Below, piece by piece: positions 3,938 through 39,611 of a DNA stretch of 39,611 nucleotides. Position 1 is the first letter of the stretch; every line of letters starts with the position of its first letter. The stretch comes from a virus (taxonomy: Duplodnaviria > Heunggongvirae > Uroviricota > Caudoviricetes): IMG/VR virus record IMGVR_UViG_2563366977_000005, positions 1-39,611 of that record. One strand, given 5' to 3'. A program made the position numbers and the translations under genes. Under the pieces are notes generated by a model. That model was not told the DNA's origin, did not search any database, and saw nothing but the letters and a program-made list of their open reading frames with translations.

Positions 3938-5980
3938 TGTAGCGTTAAATCTTGCTCTATAGTCTTTTCCTAATGCTATGAAATCTATGTCAGTGGGAGC
4001 GCCTGCAGTATTGTACATCCTTACAACGAATGAGTTTGCGGTAGGATAACCACCTATTATTCCGTATCCTGGTACCCCTACAGTAGTTATTTCTACAGCC
4101 ACGTTTGCTATATCATGATTTGCATTTACTGTATAAACCCCAGTCGCTCCCCTTGTAACACTGAGTATATTTCTCCTGTTTCCCATTGCTCCAGTCGCAC
4201 CAACAACGCTCACACCAAAAGCGAAGTCAGGAGAGCTTTTCCATTTAACAGTAGCATCCACAACCGGTGATTGTGATGGGATCCATAAGTTATCATAATC
4301 GATAAAAATAGCCTGCTCATTGGCGGAATATCCACTTATACTAACATCTGGCCTCGATGCGCTTGCCGTATAGCCAACCCCAAGGCAGGTATTACCACGC
4401 ATCTCCAGAGTCATAGTTACCCCTGACGGGTAACTATAATTACCACCCAGAACTATTACTTGGCTAACAGGATACTGCGTATCGTTATTGTTGAAGTTAC
4501 TATTTGAAATAACATGCTTGATAGAGCGGTTGTTGCTATGGGTTATGTAGAACGGGTATCCACTAACAGTTTCCACATACAACCCATCTACTACTAACCC
4601 GACGGTGCCGTCAGAACCTCCACCCTGCACGTAGAACCCACGGAATGTAGTGTCCCCCGGAGAACCACACCCTTCAATGCTACCGCCATCAATTTGGAAT
4701 TGTGTAGCGTTAACTATCCATAAACCCTGGTTTTCCATAGTAAGAATCTGTGGGCGAATGAATCTGTTAGCGTTAGGGTTGGCATAACCAGAACCAACCG
4801 TTCCCCCTGCCTCAAACTTCGCCCCACGATAGCCACTAAACCAGCACGGCTCAATCCATGTGCATGACAGTACGCTTTGCGCAAGAAGTTGTTGGTATCC
4901 CCCCGCCCATTTGACACGCTCAATTACTGCCCCTGTCAGGCGGCCCAACTTCATTAAATAGCCAGTTTTGGTAAGGCCTTTCTCTCGAATCTGGAAGTCT
5001 TTCATACCCCAAGTTTGGGTAAAACTATCCAACATGCACGTGATGTTATATGTATCAGTACCCAACGGGGTGCATATAAAGTAACTGCTGTTTATGCCGT
5101 ATCCTTCAATCCGCGGCATGGCTGACGTATTGTCAAAAAAAGCTGGCATACTCACAGCTTTTTCTAAGTGGATAAACCCATACCCAAGCTGAACATGTTT
5201 ACCTAAGGCTGCCGCTGCATTGAAGACATTTTGTAATGCATCACTATGCGCGGATGAAGATGTGGATGTTGATCCATCTCCAATACCAGCCCAATCAGTA
5301 TGAATATGTGTGGCATCACCAATATCTCTCACCCACACGCCACTCCCGGTAGGATCAGTTTCACCCTGACCAGTAACATATGATGAAAGATTTGTGCTGT
5401 AAGGCACGGTCGGGCTGAAGTATATGCAGCCGTCATGCTTAGCTTTCGGAACATTAGCCTGGAAGATAAACTCACCACCACCTTTTGGCTTTCCATATGT
5501 AGTTACACTCCAACCAGCATACCAACTACGTAGTTTTACACGAGCGCCGTCGTTTTTAACAAGACCAAAGAAGTCAGCAGCTGATTGCAACTCCCCTATG
5601 TACGAATAACCTTCCTTGCCAGCCAATAATTGCATTAATGCTTCAGGATCATACCTTACCACATTGTCAAAATAATATTCCTGAGAACCATAAGAGTCGT
5701 AAACAGCAAGACTATATTGTTCATCTGTAATTATTTTATTTATTATTTGACCATTATAAACAGGATGACCACCGGAGTTTATAACAATCGGTTGTGGAAT
5801 CTGTATCTTATTTCCACTCTCATTAACGATATATACTGGAACCTGATTTTCAGGATATACAGGGTCTGTGTCAGGAATACCTACATATATTTTACCATTT
5901 GAAATAGCTTTGAATGAACGCGATGCTGTGTACAGACTCATTGGCATATTTACAAGAATTGACTGTGACGTCTCTGACAT
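3935..5980 (-). CDS. Tailspike protein (681 aa) with P22 gp9-like N-terminal head-binding domain
   Basis: First ~110 aa (SRSFKAISNGKIYVG...PVYNGQ...YDP) align with the recalled P22 tailspike N-terminus; remainder divergent (receptor-binding part). Confidence 0.85.
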   Translation of the reverse strand: MSETSQSILVNMPMSLYTASRSFKAISNGKIYVGIPDTDPVYPENQVPVYIVNESGNKIQIPQPIVINSGGHPVYNGQIINKIITDEQYSLAVYDSYGSQEYYFDNVVRYDPEALMQLLAGKEGYSYIGELQSAADFFGLVKNDGARVKLRSWYAGWSVTTYGKPKGGGEFIFQANVPKAKHDGCIYFSPTVPYSTNLSSYVTGQGETDPTGSGVWVRDIGDATHIHTDWAGIGDGSTSTSSSAHSDALQNVFNAAAALGKHVQLGYGFIHLEKAVSMPAFFDNTSAMPRIEGYGINSSYFICTPLGTDTYNITCMLDSFTQTWGMKDFQIREKGLTKTGYLMKLGRLTGAVIERVKWAGGYQQLLAQSVLSCTWIEPCWFSGYRGAKFEAGGTVGSGYANPNANRFIRPQILTMENQGLWIVNATQFQIDGGSIEGCGSPGDTTFRGFYVQGGGSDGTVGLVVDGLYVETVSGYPFYITHSNNRSIKHVISNSNFNNNDTQYPVSQVIVLGGNYSYPSGVTMTLEMRGNTCLGVGYTASASRPDVSISGYSANEQAIFIDYDNLWIPSQSPVVDATVKWKSSPDFAFGVSVVGATGAMGNRRNILSVTRGATGVYTVNANHDIANVAVEITTVGVPGYGIIGGYPTANSFVVRMYNTAGAPTDIDFIALGKDYRARFNAT

Positions 5981-6079
5981 TTAAGGGCTCCAAATGCAAG
6001 TAATAGACTCAGCGTGGATATGATTGAGATTCATTACATACCAAAATGGTACTATTGAGTGTTTATCCAGTAGGTTACG

Positions 6080-6373
6080 ATGCCATTCCACCCAACTGGT
6101 GAGGCATCAAGGATGTACAGCAAATACGACGAGGCGCAGTTTCACTTGAGACTTCCGCATGAACTCCACGCGAAAATTAAGCAGCGTGCGAAGATGAATA
6201 ACAGGTCGCTGAACTCAGAGATAATTGCAGCGATTGAAGAATCATTGGCTAAACAAAGCTCTGCATCAGTTTACATTGACGATGCAGAGCGTATGGCAGA
6301 ACAACAATCTGATATGGTTAAGAAAATTGTCTTTGATACGCTCAAGGAGCTATATAAAAAAGACAGCAGCTAA
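6080..6373 (+). CDS. mnt: Mnt-like ribbon-helix-helix repressor (alternative start at 6113)
   Basis: FHLRLPHELHAKIKQRAKMNNRSLNSEIIAAIEE and C-terminal ...VKKIVFDTLKELYKK resemble recalled P22 Mnt; divergent from tailspike as in P22 immI. Confidence 0.7.
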   Translation: MPFHPTGEASRMYSKYDEAQFHLRLPHELHAKIKQRAKMNNRSLNSEIIAAIEESLAKQSSASVYIDDAERMAEQQSDMVKKIVFDTLKELYKKDSS

Positions 6374-6393
6374 CCATCAGTTACGGAGGATTT

Positions 6394-6471
6394 ATGCAAA
6401 GAGATATGCTGAACATTGCGTTCTACATATTTGGTTTTTGCACGTTCCTGGTGTTTGCAAAGCTATTCTGA
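6394..6471 (+). CDS. Candidate 25-aa hydrophobic peptide (MQRDMLNIAFYIFGFCTFLVFAKLF)
   Basis: GGAGGA Shine-Dalgarno 4 nt upstream of ATG, directly after mnt stop; single predicted TM helix; below the ORF-track size cutoff. Confidence 0.3.
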   Translation: MQRDMLNIAFYIFGFCTFLVFAKLF

Positions 6472-8460
6472 CAACGCATCAGACTTAGCCCCCTGCGTCA
6501 GAGCGTTAATTGCCTTTTGTGCCTGCTGCATTGCTTTCTCAAAGGCTGTTGATCCGCGTGGGGTGTTTGCCATTCGGAGCATTGCATTTCTGAATGGTTC
6601 GCTCTCATAGGCGCGAGTAAGAAGTCCGTAGCTTACCGCTGCGCCAGTTGTCGCCGGGTTCATTGCCGTCCCATACCCGATAATGAACGGGATGGTTTGC
6701 TGCCCTGTTGGTGTTGTTACTGCCGCTTTTGCAGCCTGCTGCGTGGATTGCAGGTAGTTTTTCAATCCTTTCAGATAAGCGGCTTCCTGACCTTTAAATG
6801 TGATGCCAGTCTGGTTTTGCAGGATGTTAAGCTGCCGAAGGAACTGGTCAGGGGATCCGCCAGATTTCTCCATCGCCTTTCCAATGATGCCATTGCGCAT
6901 TTGCGCCCTGCCAACACGACCAACTGAGTTATACAGCGTCTTAATTTCCGATTTGTTCTTGCTGAATAGCATGTTGTTGACAACTTCCGGCGTCAGGTCG
7001 CCTTTCATGAGAACATTCTTCAGCCTGGTATTCTTTAGTTTCGCCGCTTCGTCAGCGTAGAGGGCATTGGCCTGCTGATATTTACGGAGAGTATCGTTGC
7101 CAAGATTCTGACCAATGGCACCATTGATATCGTCGGTCATTGCCTTGTAAACGCGCTGAATGGCAGCATCGGAACGGTTTGGTAACACTGGTCGCTCCCC
7201 CTTCACGTCCATTCTGAACTGGCTGCGCAGATCGCTTAATTGCTTCAAATCCAGATTTACCGGACCATCAGGACCAGCATTGCGAACAAGCTCATCACGA
7301 TAGGACTGAAGTTTTGAAATAGTCTCGTTATCAGCAACCTTACCAAGCTTCTGCAGGTTAGATATTTCTGTATCAATCTGCTGAATTGCTCTTGCAGGCT
7401 GAATGTTTATTCCAGCCATAGCATTCTGAACCTGCTCCAGTCGATTTCCTGCAGCGCGACGAATTCCTGATGTTTTCGCTTTAAGGCTGTCAATAACAAC
7501 CGCTGGATCATACTCACCGAATTTATCAGCAAATCTCTGCACCAACTGGCTTCTCGCTTCCTGTTGCGTTGCTCTCATTCCGCTTGTGCCAGCCAGAGGG
7601 ATATTTTCTGCTGTAGTCTGCGCCATTTTTCCGACGCGGGAAGTTGGTTGTAACAGGTCTGTGGTGTGCAGAGGAACTCCTTCACGCTCTGCAAATCTGA
7701 TAGCCTGCTGCGCTTCTGGCGCGATAGCACCACGAACGCCACGATAAGCAGCACCTAACCCACGTCCGGCAGCGTTAATAGCACCGCCAGTAAGTACACC
7801 AACGCCTAAATCGGTAGCGAGTGCTTCCGCATCATCTTTCGCACTATTTGCAGCAAGTGACCCGACTGCGTTTTCAGCGAGAAGGCGAGTTGCACCCTGA
7901 GCAATTCTACCAGCGAGTGTTGGTGCCTGTGTTGCCGCTCTCTCAATGCCAGCAGGAGTGAGGTAAGGCAATGCCTCAGCAAATACCCTTCCCTCTGTAG
8001 TTTGTGGAGTCAGCGCGCCTTGCTGAAGGCCAAAGTCCTGCTCTAATCCCTGCGTTGTTACTCGTGGCGCTGGGTGATATGTCCCATCGCCAATTCCGAG
8101 TTTACCGCCAGCCCAAGTCGCCGCGCTTGTTACAGCATCGGCAACTGATGCAGGTATGTTTGCCACGTTCACGCCAGCCTGCACCAGTCCGCGACCAGTC
8201 TCTTTTACTGCTTCGCCAAGATCAGACATAAATCCACTTTGCTGTGGTTGTTGCTGTGCTTCTGGTTGCGGCGTCTCCACTGGCGACACAGATGGCAATG
8301 GATAGGAAGCATAGAAAGCTTGCTTAGCCTGCTCTGCATTTTCTCCGGCTTGCGGGGCAACGACTTCATTGAAGTATTGCTCCTGAGCCTGCGCTTTTTG
8401 TTCTGGTGCTAACGCCTGATACTGTGGAGAGGCGATAACATCTTTCCATGCTTTAGCCAT
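6463..8460 (-). CDS. Ejection/injection protein, P22 gp16-like (665 aa)
   Basis: Position and size in the P22 late gene order (4-10-26-14-7-20-16); Ala/Gln-rich composition typical of ejection proteins. Confidence 0.75.
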   Translation of the reverse strand: MAKAWKDVIASPQYQALAPEQKAQAQEQYFNEVVAPQAGENAEQAKQAFYASYPLPSVSPVETPQPEAQQQPQQSGFMSDLGEAVKETGRGLVQAGVNVANIPASVADAVTSAATWAGGKLGIGDGTYHPAPRVTTQGLEQDFGLQQGALTPQTTEGRVFAEALPYLTPAGIERAATQAPTLAGRIAQGATRLLAENAVGSLAANSAKDDAEALATDLGVGVLTGGAINAAGRGLGAAYRGVRGAIAPEAQQAIRFAEREGVPLHTTDLLQPTSRVGKMAQTTAENIPLAGTSGMRATQQEARSQLVQRFADKFGEYDPAVVIDSLKAKTSGIRRAAGNRLEQVQNAMAGINIQPARAIQQIDTEISNLQKLGKVADNETISKLQSYRDELVRNAGPDGPVNLDLKQLSDLRSQFRMDVKGERPVLPNRSDAAIQRVYKAMTDDINGAIGQNLGNDTLRKYQQANALYADEAAKLKNTRLKNVLMKGDLTPEVVNNMLFSKNKSEIKTLYNSVGRVGRAQMRNGIIGKAMEKSGGSPDQFLRQLNILQNQTGITFKGQEAAYLKGLKNYLQSTQQAAKAAVTTPTGQQTIPFIIGYGTAMNPATTGAAVSYGLLTRAYESEPFRNAMLRMANTPRGSTAFEKAMQQAQKAINALTQGAKSDALSE

Positions 8461-9854
8461 TAATCACCCCATAGTGAAGAAAAGTTACTGCTGGCTGCTG
8501 GCTGTGATACCTGTGCAGGTTGAGATTGCTGCCGCTGAGATTTACCAACATTAACGTTATATTGTTGGTTGTAATTGTTGGTGTATTCCTGAATCTCACG
8601 AATCGACTGCTGCATAGCCTCCGGGCTTGAATAGTCAACCTGCGGCATCCCCTGAAAATACATCTTCGCTTCTGCAACGGTGTTAATACCACTGGCCCCC
8701 ATGTCCCTTGCTGCCGCCACACCCTGATTCTGCATTCTGCCCTGAATACGTTGTGCTGAGTTATATAACTGGCGCTGCTCTTTTCCTGTTAATCGGCTGC
8801 GAACATCAGCACCAATTGCCGGGTTACCTGCGCCGCCGGTCATTCCTGTCATGAAATCGAGAGCAGAAGCGTCTGCATTTGCGATCGCGTCGATATCCTT
8901 CTTCATGGCATAGTTTTGTGCTGATGCAGACGATGTTGCAGGCGCTGCGATTGAACTGGCAGGAACGCGAACCATATTCCCCTCGTTGTCGATGCCTTCG
9001 TAGAACGCATTAGCCCCAGCGCCGTGAAGTTTCCCGCCTACCGTTACAGTTCTGCCATCTGATAACTGAACTGTACGCTCATCATTCCCAGCGGTTCCTC
9101 TTGTTGACGCTCGCTGCATTGCCAAATCCTGACCGCGTCGCGCAGTAGAAGCAGATAAATCCTGACCGCGCATCGTGATGTTCTGACCTCGTGCTGTTAG
9201 CGCCTCGCCAGCCTGATTGCTGCGGATTGTCTCTGCCAGCCTGCCTCGGTCAATTTCACGACCAGCCATCTTGTCCTGAACATTGAAGTAATCAATCGGA
9301 CCAAGCGCAGCCATCCCAAGGTGATCAACAAACTCACCAAATCCTGAAGGATTCTGCTGATACATCTGAGCAACGTTATTAGGGTCAACACCGACGCGAG
9401 TCAGTTCCTTGGCGTTGTTTTGCAGCCATGATTGCATTGCTTCTGGAGACGATGCCGCAAGACGAGCGCCAGCCGCTAAGGTGCCGATAGAATTGCGCTG
9501 GTCTTCATCAATGAATCCCATGCCTTTACGAACGGATTCAATCTGGTCTGGATATTGAGTAGCCAACTGACGCAAAGCACCGCGATCACCAGACGCATAA
9601 GCATTAGCGTATGCCTGCTGAAATTCTTTCTGCCGCTGAGCCTGCTTTTCCTGCTGAAACACCCCCGCAATACCTGAAAGGCCTTGCAAAGCAGTCAGCC
9701 CAACATTGTTAGCGCCTGAACGCTCAATATCATTGTTCTGCCTGATAAGCTGAAGCGTATTGCCGATGTCATTTACGCTCGGAGCGTTTGAGTTTACGCC
9801 GCCGATACCAGCCAACAATCCGCCATTTGATCCTTGCCAAGTAGCCATGATCAC
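8460..9854 (-). CDS. Ejection protein, P22 gp20-like (464 aa)
   Basis: Synteny and size (P22 gp20 about 471 aa); start overlaps upstream stop. Confidence 0.75.
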
Positions 9855-31925: not shown

Positions 31926-31956
31926 CGCTCTTAAAAATTAAGCCCTGAAGAAGGGC
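31926..31956 (+). promoter_or_regulatory. nutL (boxA CGCTCTTA, boxB GCCCTGAAGAAGGGC)
   Basis: Exact lambda-type nutL elements upstream of N. Confidence 0.8.
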
Positions 31957-35913: not shown

Positions 35914-36127
35914 AGCAGAGTTATTTCAGAAAATATCGGCTCTCGCGACTGAATGCCACGCTATAGCATCTGAGCTTGATGTTGGCGATGAACGAACCGA
36001 GATGTTCGAAATATACAGTGTGCTGCGCAATCTCTGTCGGCGTGGCTACGCCACTCAAGTAGGGCGAATGACTAACCCACTACTCTCATCCTGTGATGAG
36101 GATGACTCGGATGAGGATGACGAATGA
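35906..36127 (+). CDS. Small protein (about 73 aa) with strongly acidic C-terminus (CDEDDSDEDDE), GTG start
   Basis: AGGAG 7 nt upstream of GTG; the upstream part of ORF 35729-36127 looks non-coding and overlaps the previous gene. Confidence 0.35.
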   Translation: MNKAELFQKISALATECHAIASELDVGDERTEMFEIYSVLRNLCRRGYATQVGRMTNPLLSSCDEDDSDEDDE

Positions 36128-36789
36128 TGCATAAATCAGTAGCCGGTGAGTTTCAGAAGGAAGTCGATAATACTACCGTTCTATTGGACGATATTTTAAG
36201 CATTCTCGCGCTGCTTGAGGCTGGCGATTGGTCAGAACATTGCACTAAAACAGAGCTAGGCGGTCGGCTTGAAAGAGAGATTACACGACTTATTGGTGAT
36301 GCGCAGGAAGCTACAGTCACTAGTTATGAGTTAATCGCTGAAGCCTGGCGTTTGATGGATGGACAAGATCCTAAAACCAGCGATTGGCATAGCAAGGCTT
36401 CGAAGTATTTAAATTCCAATAGGGTAGAAAAAGTTGATGATGTGAAACCGAAGCCAGTAGACCACGGTTTCCGCGATAACTGCGAATGCTCTAGTTGCCA
36501 GACCACGGCCCGTATTTGTTCCGAATTGACAGATAAGTCCAGCCTAATCTACGAAGTTAATGTAGGCGGTAATACATGGGTCGAATGCACAAGAGCTGCA
36601 TACGTAAGAGCAAAAGACAAGGGTGAATTAACCAGAGTTGTTACCAATCACCCAAATAATGAGCTTAAAGATCACCAGATTCGAGAACTGGTGAACGAGT
36701 TGAGGGATATTGCGGTTCAGTACCACGGAACGCAGCAATTGCGGGAGAAGATTGCCAGAGCAGTGAACAACTCAGTCCGTAAAAAATAA
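36124..36789 (+). CDS. Hypothetical protein (221 aa)
   Basis: Long ORF with balanced composition; ATGA overlap with upstream ORF. Confidence 0.6.
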   Translation: MMHKSVAGEFQKEVDNTTVLLDDILSILALLEAGDWSEHCTKTELGGRLEREITRLIGDAQEATVTSYELIAEAWRLMDGQDPKTSDWHSKASKYLNSNRVEKVDDVKPKPVDHGFRDNCECSSCQTTARICSELTDKSSLIYEVNVGGNTWVECTRAAYVRAKDKGELTRVVTNHPNNELKDHQIRELVNELRDIAVQYHGTQQLREKIARAVNNSVRKK

Positions 36790-37232
36790 GCAATAGTACG
36801 ATAAAGAGGCCCCATGCTCTTGATGGGGCCTGTAGCAACTAGCGTTATGGACGCTGGTTTACGTACTCAATGATCGCTTTGATAATCGCGAACATCGGCG
36901 GCACGATTTTGAACAGTAAGTTAACCATAACAGGCCTCACTTAGTTTTATCGCGCCTAGCTGCAAATACCTTTGGGCTTGCCTTTGCAGTTGCAATATCT
37001 GTAGTCGCCAGATACTTACGGCACGATTTCGAGTTAAGGTAAGGTTTTAGAGTCACCAAAAACCTGGACTTAAATCTTCTTTGAGAACAACGATGTTTAG
37101 TAAATGGTCATTATTACCTGGTATGACCACTCAACGTTTCTTGATGAATCCAGTACATTCGGTTAATCTTAATTCAGTCGCCAGATACTTATGGCTCAGG
37201 AACAGAGCCGCAAACTCTGTTTCCTTTTAAAA

Positions 37233-37260
37233 AGCCCAGCCTAGTCAACTGGGCTTTTTA
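37233..37260. terminator. Bidirectional intrinsic terminator
   Basis: AGCCCAG / CTGGGCT stem flanked by A4 upstream and T5 downstream. Confidence 0.65.
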
Positions 37261-37554
37261 ATGTCTATTTTTAACCCAATGAACCTTCAATACCGCAACA
37301 TCAGTGTCTTGCGAATTAAGATAGTGTGTATAGGTTATACATGCAAGTGCATAACTCTGTGGATAACTCAGGAAGGAAAAAGTAGCTTCCGCGCAATTTA
37401 GGCCAGACAAGGCTTTCGCAAAAGTCAACGGAGAGAAAAAATTTGTTAAAAATAACGTTTGTTGGAATTGTATATATTTATGCCTTTCAATAGTTAGCAT
37501 CTTATTAACATCTTTTTTAAGAGATAGAGTTCAAAAATATATAGCTTCAACATA

Positions 37555-37574
37555 TACTGTATGTATATACAGCA
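37555..37574. promoter_or_regulatory. LexA (SOS) box TACTGTATGTATATACAGCA
   Basis: CTG-N10-CAG with TA-rich spacer matching the E. coli LexA consensus; 17 nt upstream of the umuD'-like ATG. Confidence 0.7.
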
Positions 37575-37590
37575 TTAAGAGGCGAGTATT

Positions 37591-38046
37591 ATGGGCTTCC
37601 CTTCTCCTGCGGCGGATTATGCTGAGAGCCGTATTTCTCTTGATCAGCAGATAATTAGACATCCTTCAGCGACCTACTTCTTGAGGGCAGCTGATAGCCA
37701 TCATCGTGAGGGAATATTGCAGGGTGCATTGCTGGTGGTCGATTCATCACTCACTCCTGTTGATGGATCTCTTCTTGTATGTGCTCTGGATGGGGAATAT
37801 CGCGTAAAAAGATACCGGAAGTATCCGCGCCGCCATGATTGTCTTTCTCCTAATGCAGGAAAAGCAGAATGGCTAAATCATCAGCAGAGCGCAAAGCCGA
37901 TCAGAGAGCCAAGCAAGCATCATCCGGTATGCGTAAGCTGGAGCTTGTACTTGATGCTCAGGAAATTGAAATGCTGGATCGTAACTGAGCCACGCGCCGC
38001 TTCAGGCATTCGCCTTGCGAGTTTGGTGAGTACATCGCGTTACTGA
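37591..38046 (+). pseudogene. umuD'-like gene remnant: first ~85 codons are UmuD/S24-peptidase-like, remainder of the ORF is not
   Basis: GFPSPAADY...HPSATYF...LLVVDS...DGEYRVKR aligns with recalled UmuD including Ser and Lys positions; the C-terminal half is R/S/W/C-rich and looks out of frame; no frame continues the homology. Confidence 0.5.
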
Positions 38047-38207
38047 GCCGCCAGGATGATGCACGTGTGCGCTGGCGTATAAAATCGATCAGCAGAAAAC
38101 GTTGCGGTAAGTGCGGCGAGAGAGTTCCTGTTAATTCATGCCCGTGTAATGGTGACTCACAATGCTGGGTGACCAAAGGCTGGCACGAAACAAAATTAAT
38201 GATATAA
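37869..38207 (+). other. ORF with RBS interrupted by in-frame TGA (37986-37988); 39-aa N-terminal part plus 72-codon Cys-rich continuation
   Basis: Hand translation: MAKSSAERKADQRAKQASSGMRKLELVLDAQEIEMLDRN-stop-ATRRFRHSPCEFGEYIALLSRQDDARVRWRIKSISRKRCGKCGERVPVNSCPCNGDSQCWVTKGWHETKLMI. Confidence 0.3.
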
Positions 38208-38213
38208 ATCTCT

Positions 38214-38225
38214 GTGACATGTCAC
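38214..38225. promoter_or_regulatory. Perfect 12-bp palindrome GTGACATGTCAC just upstream of the RBS of the next gene
   Basis: Directly visible; candidate operator. Confidence 0.35.
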
Positions 38226-38235
38226 GGAGGCGGCA

Positions 38236-38664
38236 ATGAAATTAGACCAGCAATATCTAAAAGATTTACTTATCGCATTCGAAAAAACTCGTGGCCCTGA
38301 CACGATGCTTAGTGAACTAGAGGATAATGGCTTTAATAGATATGACCAAGATTTTATTTTCCATATGCGATTATTATATGACTACGAATTAATAGTCAGG
38401 GTTGATGGAAAACCTGGGTTCGGTCATATAATGTCCAAAGCGTTAGGGGAAGGTGTTGGATATAGTTGGATCGAAGTACCACTGAGGTTGACAGCAAGAG
38501 GGCATGATTTTATTGCTGACTTACGTCAAAAGGATGTCTGGCAAGCTATAAAAACAAACTTTAAGGATGAGGGAATTAGTACACTTATGAGTGTTTCAAA
38601 ATCACTAGCAAAAGGCTTTGCAAGGAAAAAGATAAAAGATATTACAGGAATAGATATTGAATAA
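38236..38664 (+). CDS. Hypothetical protein (142 aa)
   Basis: ORF with GGAGG upstream of ATG; followed by an intrinsic terminator. Confidence 0.6.
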   Translation: MKLDQQYLKDLLIAFEKTRGPDTMLSELEDNGFNRYDQDFIFHMRLLYDYELIVRVDGKPGFGHIMSKALGEGVGYSWIEVPLRLTARGHDFIADLRQKDVWQAIKTNFKDEGISTLMSVSKSLAKGFARKKIKDITGIDIE

Positions 38665-38709
38665 TTCTTAGCATCAAGCAACTACTGCCTTTGGTGGAAA
38701 TTATATCTG

Positions 38710-38734
38710 AACTCGCTACGGCGAGTTTTGTTTT
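38710..38734 (+). terminator. Intrinsic terminator
   Basis: AACTCGC-TACG-GCGAGTT hairpin followed by TTGTTTT. Confidence 0.6.
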
Positions 38735-38747
38735 ATGGAGATGATAA

Positions 38748-38915
38748 ATGCACTTCCGAGTCACAGGTGAATGGAATGGAGAGCCATTCAACAGGGTTAT
38801 CGAAGCAGAGAACATCAACGACTGCTATAACCACTGGATGATATGGGCGCAGATAGCGCATGCAGACGTAACCAATATTCGAATTGAAGAACTGAAAGAA
38901 CACCATGCCGCCTGA
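38748..38915 (+). CDS. Small protein (55 aa)
   Basis: GGAG 8 nt upstream of ATG; stop codon lies in the loop of a hairpin followed by T6. Confidence 0.45.
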   Translation: MHFRVTGEWNGEPFNRVIEAENINDCYNHWMIWAQIAHADVTNIRIEELKEHHAA

Positions 38916-38929
38916 TGGCGGTTTTTTAT
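38907..38929 (+). terminator. Weak intrinsic terminator overlapping the stop of the 55-aa ORF
   Basis: CCGCC-TGAT-GGCGG followed by TTTTTTATT. Confidence 0.45.
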
Positions 38930-39286
38930 TGTAGACAAGAAATGTCAGATTTGGCTATGAAGGTTTTGAAATGGCAATCGACTGGCGATGTCGGCATCAG
39001 TAGCGCAACTCTTGCCTCAATCGCATGTGGACTGAAAAAGAATATCTATGGTCATAGCTTCGGTGCTCCACATGACGCAGCCGATTTCCGGCGATGCGTT
39101 GCACTTGTTGAGCAGATTCCAGAAATCAGAGATTCATTCGACAAGGTTGCAAAGCGCGTTCCGGCATTCAAAGGCATCCTCAACGAATGGGATTCTCTCG
39201 TTGCTCTGTTGAAGTCTGAAATGAAGATACACGGAAACAAAGCACCAGAGACTTACAGAAGAATCAGCGAGCTACGCAAGGACTAA
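38915..39286 (+). CDS. Hypothetical protein (123 aa as drawn; likely starts at 38942 or 38957)
   Basis: First 9 codons of the ORF coincide with the upstream terminator, so a downstream Met is more likely. Confidence 0.5.
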   Translation: MAVFYCRQEMSDLAMKVLKWQSTGDVGISSATLASIACGLKKNIYGHSFGAPHDAADFRRCVALVEQIPEIRDSFDKVAKRVPAFKGILNEWDSLVALLKSEMKIHGNKAPETYRRISELRKD

Positions 39287-39410
39287 CCACAGTCTCACAC
39301 TCGATGAGGCCTGTTCATTTCTCAAGATATCCAGACCTACCATTGCTGCATCAATGCGGCTTTTTATTGCCTGATTTGCAGGTTCGATTCCATATTCGGA
39401 GATAGCACTC

Positions 39411-39611
39411 ATGCAACACGAACTACAGCCTGATTCACTGGTTGATTTGAAATTCATCATGGCCGATACTGGCTTTGGTAAAACCTTCATCTACGACCGG
39501 ATTAAGTCCGGCGACCTGCCAAAAGCCAAAGTTATCCACGGTCGAGCAAGATGGTTATATCGTGACCATTGTGAATTCAAAAATAAGCTCTTAAGCCGCG
39601 CCAATGGGTAA
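39411..39611 (+). CDS. xis: Excisionase / recombination directionality factor (TorI-like), 66 aa
   Basis: Translation matches KplE1 TorI as recalled; ends exactly at the window edge. Confidence 0.8.
   Translation: MQHELQPDSLVDLKFIMADTGFGKTFIYDRIKSGDLPKAKVIHGRARWLYRDHCEFKNKLLSRANG

Follow-up and report, generated by a model that had tools for sequence, protein, structure and literature searches.

What are the three small hypothetical genes that stand next to the excisionase gene (xis) at one end of an Escherichia coli prophage, and to which gene does the perfect 12-bp palindrome in front of them belong? The prophage is the tailed-phage (Caudoviricetes) genome of IMG/VR record IMGVR_UViG_2563366977_000005, whose positions 1 to 39,611, the whole stretch of DNA analysed here, we call the window; the genes lie near its right end, between positions 38207 and 39286. 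An earlier interpretation made from the letters and without database searches (hereafter the sequence-only reading) had described them as individually insulated by intrinsic terminators, provided with a palindromic operator, and typical of moron cargo. Our comparisons give another answer. The region amounts to an ordinary mosaic version of the dispensable lambdoid exo-xis region, made from catalogued parts: a patchwork of the downstream half of an X-DUF2513 cassette, the orf55 gene of phage lambda, and the ORF114 gene of phages 434 and HK022, where X denotes the gene located just upstream. Taken together, the evidence makes it likely that the whole is a lambdoid exo-xis mosaic of three accessory cassettes, with hairpins that N-modified RNA polymerase would read through and a palindrome that would belong to X.

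The window matches a prophage of E. coli AST215 at 99.9% identity and represents a P22/HK620-like (lambda/P22-type) prophage at argW. The RefSeq annotation runs from tRNA-Arg (argW) and intS through P22-type tailspike, capsid, portal, and terminase genes to the lysis genes, Q, nin genes, replication genes, cII, cro and cI, and N; there follow kil, a Rad52-type annealase, ssb, an anti-RecBCD gene, and several small open reading frames (ORFs), and finally DUF2513, two hypothetical genes, and torI. The window begins within intS, at the left end of the prophage, and finishes with the stop codon of torI (39411–39611, + strand), at the right end, a KplE1-type excisionase gene according to both the RefSeq annotation and a PHROG match; we take the placement of intS and torI at opposite ends to be that of the KplE1/HK620-type recombination module. 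All ORFs from N to torI, including DUF2513, ORF55, and ORF114, are on the + strand, so that 38207–39286 forms the distal end of the early-left (pL) operon. Upstream of N, a gene that the 99.9%-identical RefSeq entry annotates, direct reading of the + strand revealed a boxA (CGCTCTTA, 31926–31933) and a boxB (GCCCTGAAGAAGGGC, 31942–31956), which presumably constitute a lambda-type nutL (31926–31956). The three genes lie between the recombination genes and xis and are co-oriented with pL, N, and nutL; they form the xis-proximal tail of a presumably N-antiterminated early-left operon, the counterpart of the non-essential exo-xis region of lambda.

The three + strand ORFs delineated by the sequence-only reading were all recovered. 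The first (38236–38664) codes for a 142-aa DUF2513 protein, predicted to be of the winged-helix type, and has a Shine-Dalgarno (SD) sequence, GGAGG, at 38226–38230, 5 nt before its ATG. The second, ORF55 (38748–38915, 55 aa, phrog_676), preceded by GGAG at 38737–38740, 7 nt before the ATG, is the orf55 of lambda (lambdap35) and the ORF55 of 434; its product is identical at 53 of 55 residues (96%) to that of lambdap35 (NC_001416, 29118–29285), a gene directly upstream of xis. The third is the ORF114 of 434 and HK022 (38942–39286, 114 aa, with the start used by RefSeq and by the 434 record). A longer form of 123 aa can be read from 38915, but its codons 1–9 (38915–38941) are, as the earlier interpretation had noticed, the hairpin arm and T-tract of the preceding terminator-like element. 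An SD sequence had been claimed for each gene; the claim is sound for the first two, and for ORF114 the motif is degenerate (GTAG in the window versus GGAG in 434 and HK022).

Across 38704–39379, the ORF55-ORF114 block shares about 95% nucleotide identity with 434 (M60848) and HK022 (X51962) (94% as mean column identity in the alignment), with both ORFs, named ORF55 and ORF114 in those records, the hairpin between them, and the t'I hairpin. Each cassette of the region ends in a hairpin/U-tract element matching a hairpin in lambda, 434, and HK022. On the + strand, the first of these elements (38709–38737; hairpin 38709–38728, 8 bp, tail TGTTTTAT) stands directly before the ribosome-binding site (RBS) of ORF55; the second, GCCGCC-TGAT-GGCGGT with a T-tract (38907–38930; hairpin 38907–38922, 6 bp, −11.4 kcal/mol, tail TTTTTTATT), overlaps the ORF55 stop; and the third, not mentioned in the sequence-only reading, follows ORF114 (39345–39366; hairpin 39345–39360) and is homologous to the annotated t'I of 434. 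The first two had been described as hairpins with T-tracts behind the first two genes, and they do look like intrinsic terminators. A terminator scan of 37200–39611 found nine terminator-like sites versus 1.9 ± 1.3 in shuffled sequences, and folding backs the terminator-like hairpins on the + strand. The 434 and HK022 records annotate the terminators tL4 and t'I at or beside the matching hairpins. Identification of the 38709 hairpin with tL4 itself was ruled out by the alignment: the annotated tL4 hairpin is its neighbour just upstream, the two stand in tandem in lambda, 434, and HK022, and the window keeps only the second of the pair.

The differences between these phages locate the joints of the mosaic. 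Lambda resembles the window in that orf55 adjoins xis, with the same hairpin before the RBS and the same hairpin at the stop. By contrast, the upstream place of X'-DUF2513 is taken in lambda by ea8.5 and ea22, and ORF114 is missing there. In lambda, the pI CII box and xis come immediately after the hairpin at the orf55 stop, the place at which 434 annotates t'I; in 434, HK022, and the window, ORF114 and a second t'I-like hairpin are inserted at this t'I position. Unlike the window, 434 and HK022 have the annotated tL4 hairpin, the GGAG before ORF114, and a full CII-box spacer, and the window xis is of the KplE1 TorI type, not of the lambda type. Homology to 434 ends at 39379, where the TorI module starts. 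The last bases of the homologous block (39367–39379, + strand) hold a remnant of the pI CII box that reads TTGC-N5-TTGC versus TTGC-N6-TTGC in 434 and lambda, one spacer base having been lost. The shortened spacer lies exactly at the TorI joint, and CII-dependent pI is therefore probably non-functional in this KplE1-type arrangement.

The sequence-only reading had treated the three genes as one unit, a view that their distribution contradicts. Across 5426 complete E. coli genomes, ORF55 was found in 2200 (about 41%), ORF114 in 915, and X'-DUF2513 in 167, and ORF55, ORF114, and DUF2513 are contiguous in only 8. Forty E. coli-type viral-contig loci were recovered with DUF2513 as query: ORF55 follows DUF2513 in all 40, X precedes it in 38, and ORF114 is added in 6; the xis gene is lambda-type in 34 and TorI-type in the other 6. 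The isolated lambda-like phage Chlobot has the order UmuD-like gene, X fragment, DUF2513, ORF55, xis, int. In other genera, DUF2513 occurs in nin regions, just before the small terminase gene terS, or near the integrase gene, and never with ORF55. DUF2513, ORF55, and ORF114 assort independently. Much of the region was already on record, since ORF55, ORF114, and the hairpins are in the lambda, 434, and HK022 entries (where two of the hairpins are listed as the terminators tL4 and t'I), and Pfam already has a DUF2513 family. Given their abundance, ORF55 and ORF114 (the latter with about 1900 representative clusters) are nevertheless cheap targets for work on early phage-host interactions.

Genes of the lambda exo-xis region are among the earliest transcripts from pL (PMC8614690), and lambda Orf55 has been modelled with a resemblance to T7 Gp2, as a possible RNA polymerase modulator, a suggestion that its author calls speculative (PMC8614690). 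A comparable regime can be proposed here. In the lysogen, pL would be repressed and the hairpins would stop stray transcription ahead of torI, which, as long as N is absent, they would shield. Upon induction or infection, polymerase modified by N at nutL would read past the hairpins at 37238, 38709, 38907, and 39345, and DUF2513, ORF55, ORF114, and TorI would be made as delayed-early products. The first of these hairpins (37238–37255, + strand; −17.1 kcal/mol, z −4.6) is a strong intrinsic-terminator-like element that closes the preceding early-left genes, and Rfam searches of 36800–39611 gave sub-threshold matches only, at this terminator. This lineage could have a second input. A sigma-70-like promoter, TTCAAA-17-TATACT (37530–37574, + strand), found by the promoter scan, overlaps a CTGT-N8-ACAG, read directly at 37557–37572, that we take to be a LexA box; it precedes a truncated HumD/UmuD-like pseudogene (37591–37836, + strand; Peptidase_S24, E 3.8e-10; 'incomplete' in RefSeq). 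From there, an SOS-induced transcript could cross two pseudogenes into DUF2513 and end at 38709–38737. The LexA-box promoter is missing from most relatives, as in 33 of 39 loci homology to the window does not begin before 37726. An SOS-regulated humD-X-DUF2513 operon was considered as a general unit and discarded, since this promoter is found only in the window-like subset.

The second half of our question concerns the palindrome. The inverted repeat GTGACATGTCAC (GTGAC-N2-GTCAC), which has no strand of its own, occupies 38214–38225 and occurs once in the window. It lies where the sequence-only reading had placed an operator and it is conserved, but its assignment to the 142-aa gene does not hold, as it tracks the upstream gene X, of which it marks a conserved 3' boundary. 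Chance was also considered as its origin; the window contains six perfect 12-bp palindromes versus 9.7 expected under a uniform model or 11.2 ± 2.8 under a Markov model, so that the count alone would allow it, and conservation rules it out. In the window, X is a pseudogene (37869–38207, + strand, 'internal stop' in RefSeq) matching phrog_536 and coding for 112 aa when intact, in which an in-frame TGA (37986–37988) replaces a Cys codon. Related loci have intact versions, e.g. MAKSAAERKA...CGKCG...CPC...CW...GWHETKLxx. Eleven independent DUF2513 lineages could be compared. In seven, the site precedes the SD with 12/12 or 11/12 matches and with differing spacer bases, and in all seven X is also present, by its 3' end or as a remnant, the match being 11/12 in two lineages with only a remnant; in the four lineages that lack X, the site is absent upstream of DUF2513.

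A wider sample consisted of 80 X loci chosen by protein similarity alone. The exact site is present in 61, with one mismatch in 6 and with two in 2, so that 67 of 80 have at most one mismatch. In 63 of the sampled loci, it overlaps the X stop codon as NNG-TGA-CATGTCAC. The last sense codon of X has G as third base in 98%, the eight non-coding bases of the site are 89–100% conserved, and information content falls to about zero from position +13. Within the site, only the central positions 6 and 7 vary, and positions 5 and 8 are invariant although they would be loop bases in RNA; a 5+2+5 repeat of this sort is better explained by a dimeric DNA-binding protein than by an RNA stem-loop. Downstream of the site, the lineages have nothing in common: some have terminators, others an SD with assorted small genes, or a humD-like gene behind a LexA-box promoter, and of 77 loci only 3 have DUF2513 next. 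X is the last gene before terS in 56 of 77, at a median distance of 122 nt, for instance in the Uetakevirus phiv142-3. A second exact copy lies 2.2–2.45 kb downstream of the X stop, just after the large terminase gene terL, in 25 of the 80 loci. This pattern points to a selected inverted repeat of the protein-bound kind, probably a binding site for X or for another phage factor. Since X carries a nonsense codon here, the copy in the window is probably a relic.

The association between X and the site extends across lineages and phage types. The gp46 of N15, 40% identical to X, ends GCG-TGA-CTGGTCAC, and the X homologue of a P2-like Yersinia phage ends TTG-TGA-CGCGTCAC; a Vibrio homologue of X has no GTGAC-N2-GTCAC site. 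Chance would place about 0.04 such sites in a genome, versus three in each X-encoding genome examined. In phiv142-3, they coincide with the X stop, with a point 75 nt after terL, and with the stop codon of the last late gene; SPN1S, which also has X, has three in equivalent positions, beside terminator hairpins; and N15 has them at the gp46 stop, inside repA, and upstream of the antirepressor operon. HK022, without X, has none, and the window has one, at the end of its X pseudogene. In N15, a single 12-mer with an asymmetric centre, GTGACTGGTCAC, recurs in one orientation or the other at all three sites (28550, 33237, and 39269). In lambdoid prophages and in epsilon15-like, N15-like, and P2-like phages, the sites number about three per genome at operon ends (the X stop before terS, after terL, the end of the late operon), often beside intrinsic terminators. 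In epsilon15-like prophages, exemplified by one locus, the order is X, palindrome, LexA-box promoter, humD-like gene, terS. A megablast search with a 44-nt Uetakevirus junction yielded nothing beyond prevalence.

A parallel is provided by the stoperators of mycobacteriophage L5 and its cluster A relatives, repressor sites scattered at gene ends where they block elongation. Both are short specific sites repeated a few times per genome at stop codons and operon ends. Stoperators are asymmetric and orientation-dependent, whereas the X site is symmetric and has only about three copies per genome. Tentatively, and with somewhat less than even confidence, we propose that GTGAC-N2-GTCAC could be the recognition site of the widespread X family, serving as symmetric stoperator-like punctuation or in the control of late genes, and that the window copy would be a fossil of it. 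X matches phrog_536 under the label 'transcriptional regulator', which comes from PHROGs alone; the 1042 clusters that its family comprises at 90% identity all carry the name 'hypothetical', and searches for a Pfam family, an NCBIfam-type name, or a sequence relative in the PDB gave none. The X/GTGAC-N2-GTCAC association is a new lead, mostly outside the window, toward an apparently undescribed cis-element; literature searches for tL4, DUF2513, and the palindrome string returned no papers. As X usually stands immediately before the terminase genes, its binding to the site, if confirmed, may explain how early and late transcription are separated in several temperate phage groups.

Several observations weigh against the reading of the region as an exo-xis mosaic whose palindrome belongs to X. 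The DUF2513 gene has a GC content of 37–39% versus 46–50% in its neighbours and is bounded by terminators, as a moron would be. Positions 38180–38208 contain a candidate promoter, CTGGCA-17-TATAAA, which has an extended −10 TG and whose transcript would start inside the palindrome. The AlphaFold2 model of X is weak (predicted local distance difference test, pLDDT, 68; predicted template-modelling score, pTM, 0.40); a Foldseek search with it against the PDB gave no match at E ≤ 0.001, and the ribbon-helix-helix that residues 20–77 might form is an unverified impression gained by eye. Finally, read-through of the hairpins by N and silence in the lysogen are extrapolated from lambda biology and from the presence of N and nutL. 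The candidate promoter had been rejected by our scan because its −10 ends in A. It recurs in TAA-stop lineages with DUF2513, coinciding with the coding sequence for ...GWHETKLxI-stop, and is absent in TGA-stop lineages; a promoter in the X tail was downgraded on these grounds, the motif being codons for GWH...I-stop.

The first two of these observations are what the moron interpretation would predict, namely autonomous promoter-gene-terminator cassettes expressed in the lysogen to the benefit of the host, by defence or superinfection exclusion for example. We judge it improbable for the region. Morons of HK97 and HK022 are reportedly promoter-gene-terminator units placed between essential genes, and the HK022 record carries the note 'moron gene product'. 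The region shares with them a terminator-like hairpin after each ORF, so that every gene has its own putative downstream terminator and is flanked by hairpin/T-tract elements, a patchy, mosaic distribution, and the deviant GC content of DUF2513. Unlike morons, ORF55 and ORF114 have no detected promoter of their own and sit inside a presumably antiterminated early rather than a late operon. The consensus promoter scan found no sigma-70-like site on the + strand of 38207–39286, with the proviso that it is a crude consensus matcher that weak promoters may escape, and the hairpin at 38709–38728 abuts the ORF55 RBS, which leaves no space for a promoter there. The same block, about 95% identical, belongs to the pL operon in lambda, 434, and HK022, co-oriented with N and nutL here, and none of the three proteins matched a PADLOC defence family; NCBIfam and PDB-sequence searches with all three were equally without matches. 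For ORF55 and ORF114, the moron claim of the sequence-only reading is not supported. For DUF2513 it is weak: this gene alone resembles a moron, with a terminator on either side and the LexA-box promoter upstream, but that promoter is absent in most relatives. Homology to characterised early phage functions, along with a lack of lysogen expression, had been named as what would overturn the claim; such homology was found for position and regulation and does not extend to a characterised function.

A minor rival, in our estimate unlikely, is that the palindrome acts in RNA: a 9-bp hairpin, cucuGUGAcaugUCACggag, would sequester the SD of DUF2513, whose translation would be coupled to ribosomes ending at the X stop, a truncated X leading to poor translation. 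The predicted fold (−10.8 kcal/mol, z −2.7, SD paired) agrees with this, as does the overlap or abutment of the site with the stop codons of X, N15 gp46, the Yersinia phage gene, and Orf12 of phiv142-3; the flanking bases are often C-U...G-G, permitting a wobble pair. However, the 9-bp extension is not conserved in other lineages and the core alone is a 4-bp stem, many copies precede terminators or promoters instead of an SD, and the invariance of the would-be loop positions 5 and 8 in a 5+2+5 arrangement suits, as said, a dimeric DNA-binding protein. The change of everything 3' of the site while X is conserved would also be expected if the palindrome were nothing more than a conserved linker for module recombination, a boundary of the kind described by the modular theory and itself without function. 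We consider this unlikely. Twelve base pairs are very short for homologous exchange; three X-encoding phages have three sites each versus the 0.04 expected, with the extra copies at operon ends beside terminators; 25 of 80 loci have a second copy right behind terL; and in the last codon before the stop, G is maintained as the third base.

Very unlikely is the remaining possibility, an autoregulatory operator of the DUF2513 protein, which its predicted MarR/PadR-like fold, the position of the site immediately 5' of the SD, and the presence of the site or its 11/12 version before the gene in 7 of 11 independent lineages would suit, but against which stand at least 64 X loci with the site and no DUF2513 downstream, the absence of the site from all four DUF2513 lineages in which neither X nor a remnant of it is left, so that site and gene do not consistently co-occur, and the extra copies in phiv142-3, SPN1S, and N15, none of them beside a DUF2513 gene.

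The DUF2513 protein itself matches PF10711 with a score of 41.3 bits (gathering threshold 29.6), its residues 2–115 covering model positions 1–100 of 100, and also matches phrog_585, of unknown function. PF10711 is present in 96 of 99 homologues of the 142-aa protein, which reach down to 46% identity across Enterobacterales. An AlphaFold model built with 44 sequences (pLDDT 93.5, pTM 0.84) predicts a fold that is a MarR/PadR-like winged helix, although the sequence is only 9–21% identical to the DNA-binding winged-helix proteins MarR, PadR, HxlR, and TubR and has no Pfam match to those families. In one viral contig (68–127), the terminal inverted repeat of an IS1 abuts GGAGGCGGCA-ATG of DUF2513, replacing the palindrome and X. 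The TGA at 37986–37988 in X recurs in at least one further E. coli locus and in phage Chlobot, where only a 46-aa C-terminal fragment of X is annotated; three other E. coli loci have X intact.

ORF114 belongs to a large uncharacterised family, of which 1901 representatives were retrieved at E ≤ 1e-3. Its alignment has an invariant motif, G18/S20...P43-D45-D48-R51-C52...W83. Neither Pfam nor the PDB gave a match to ORF114, and a profile against PDB sequences, Pfam scans of homologues (45 stand-alone, 34 fused), and the fusion partners were uninformative. Many homologues are chimeric with Ea22, Kil, Erf, or dATP/dGTP pyrophosphohydrolase (six of them, for example). The existence of these chimeras in databases makes the ORF114 gene itself a recombination joint and suggests frequent recombination inside it. 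Another mosaic lies upstream, at 36124–36789, where segments of a 221-aa ORF match nine different PHROG families, all of unknown function. Elsewhere in the prophage, an immI-like region at about 5800–9400 (7969–9227 of NZ_AP043621), between the tailspike and DNA-transfer genes, contains Arc-family genes, an antirepressor gene, a hypothetical gene, and a PIN-domain gene, and is possibly a toxin-antitoxin or defence insert.

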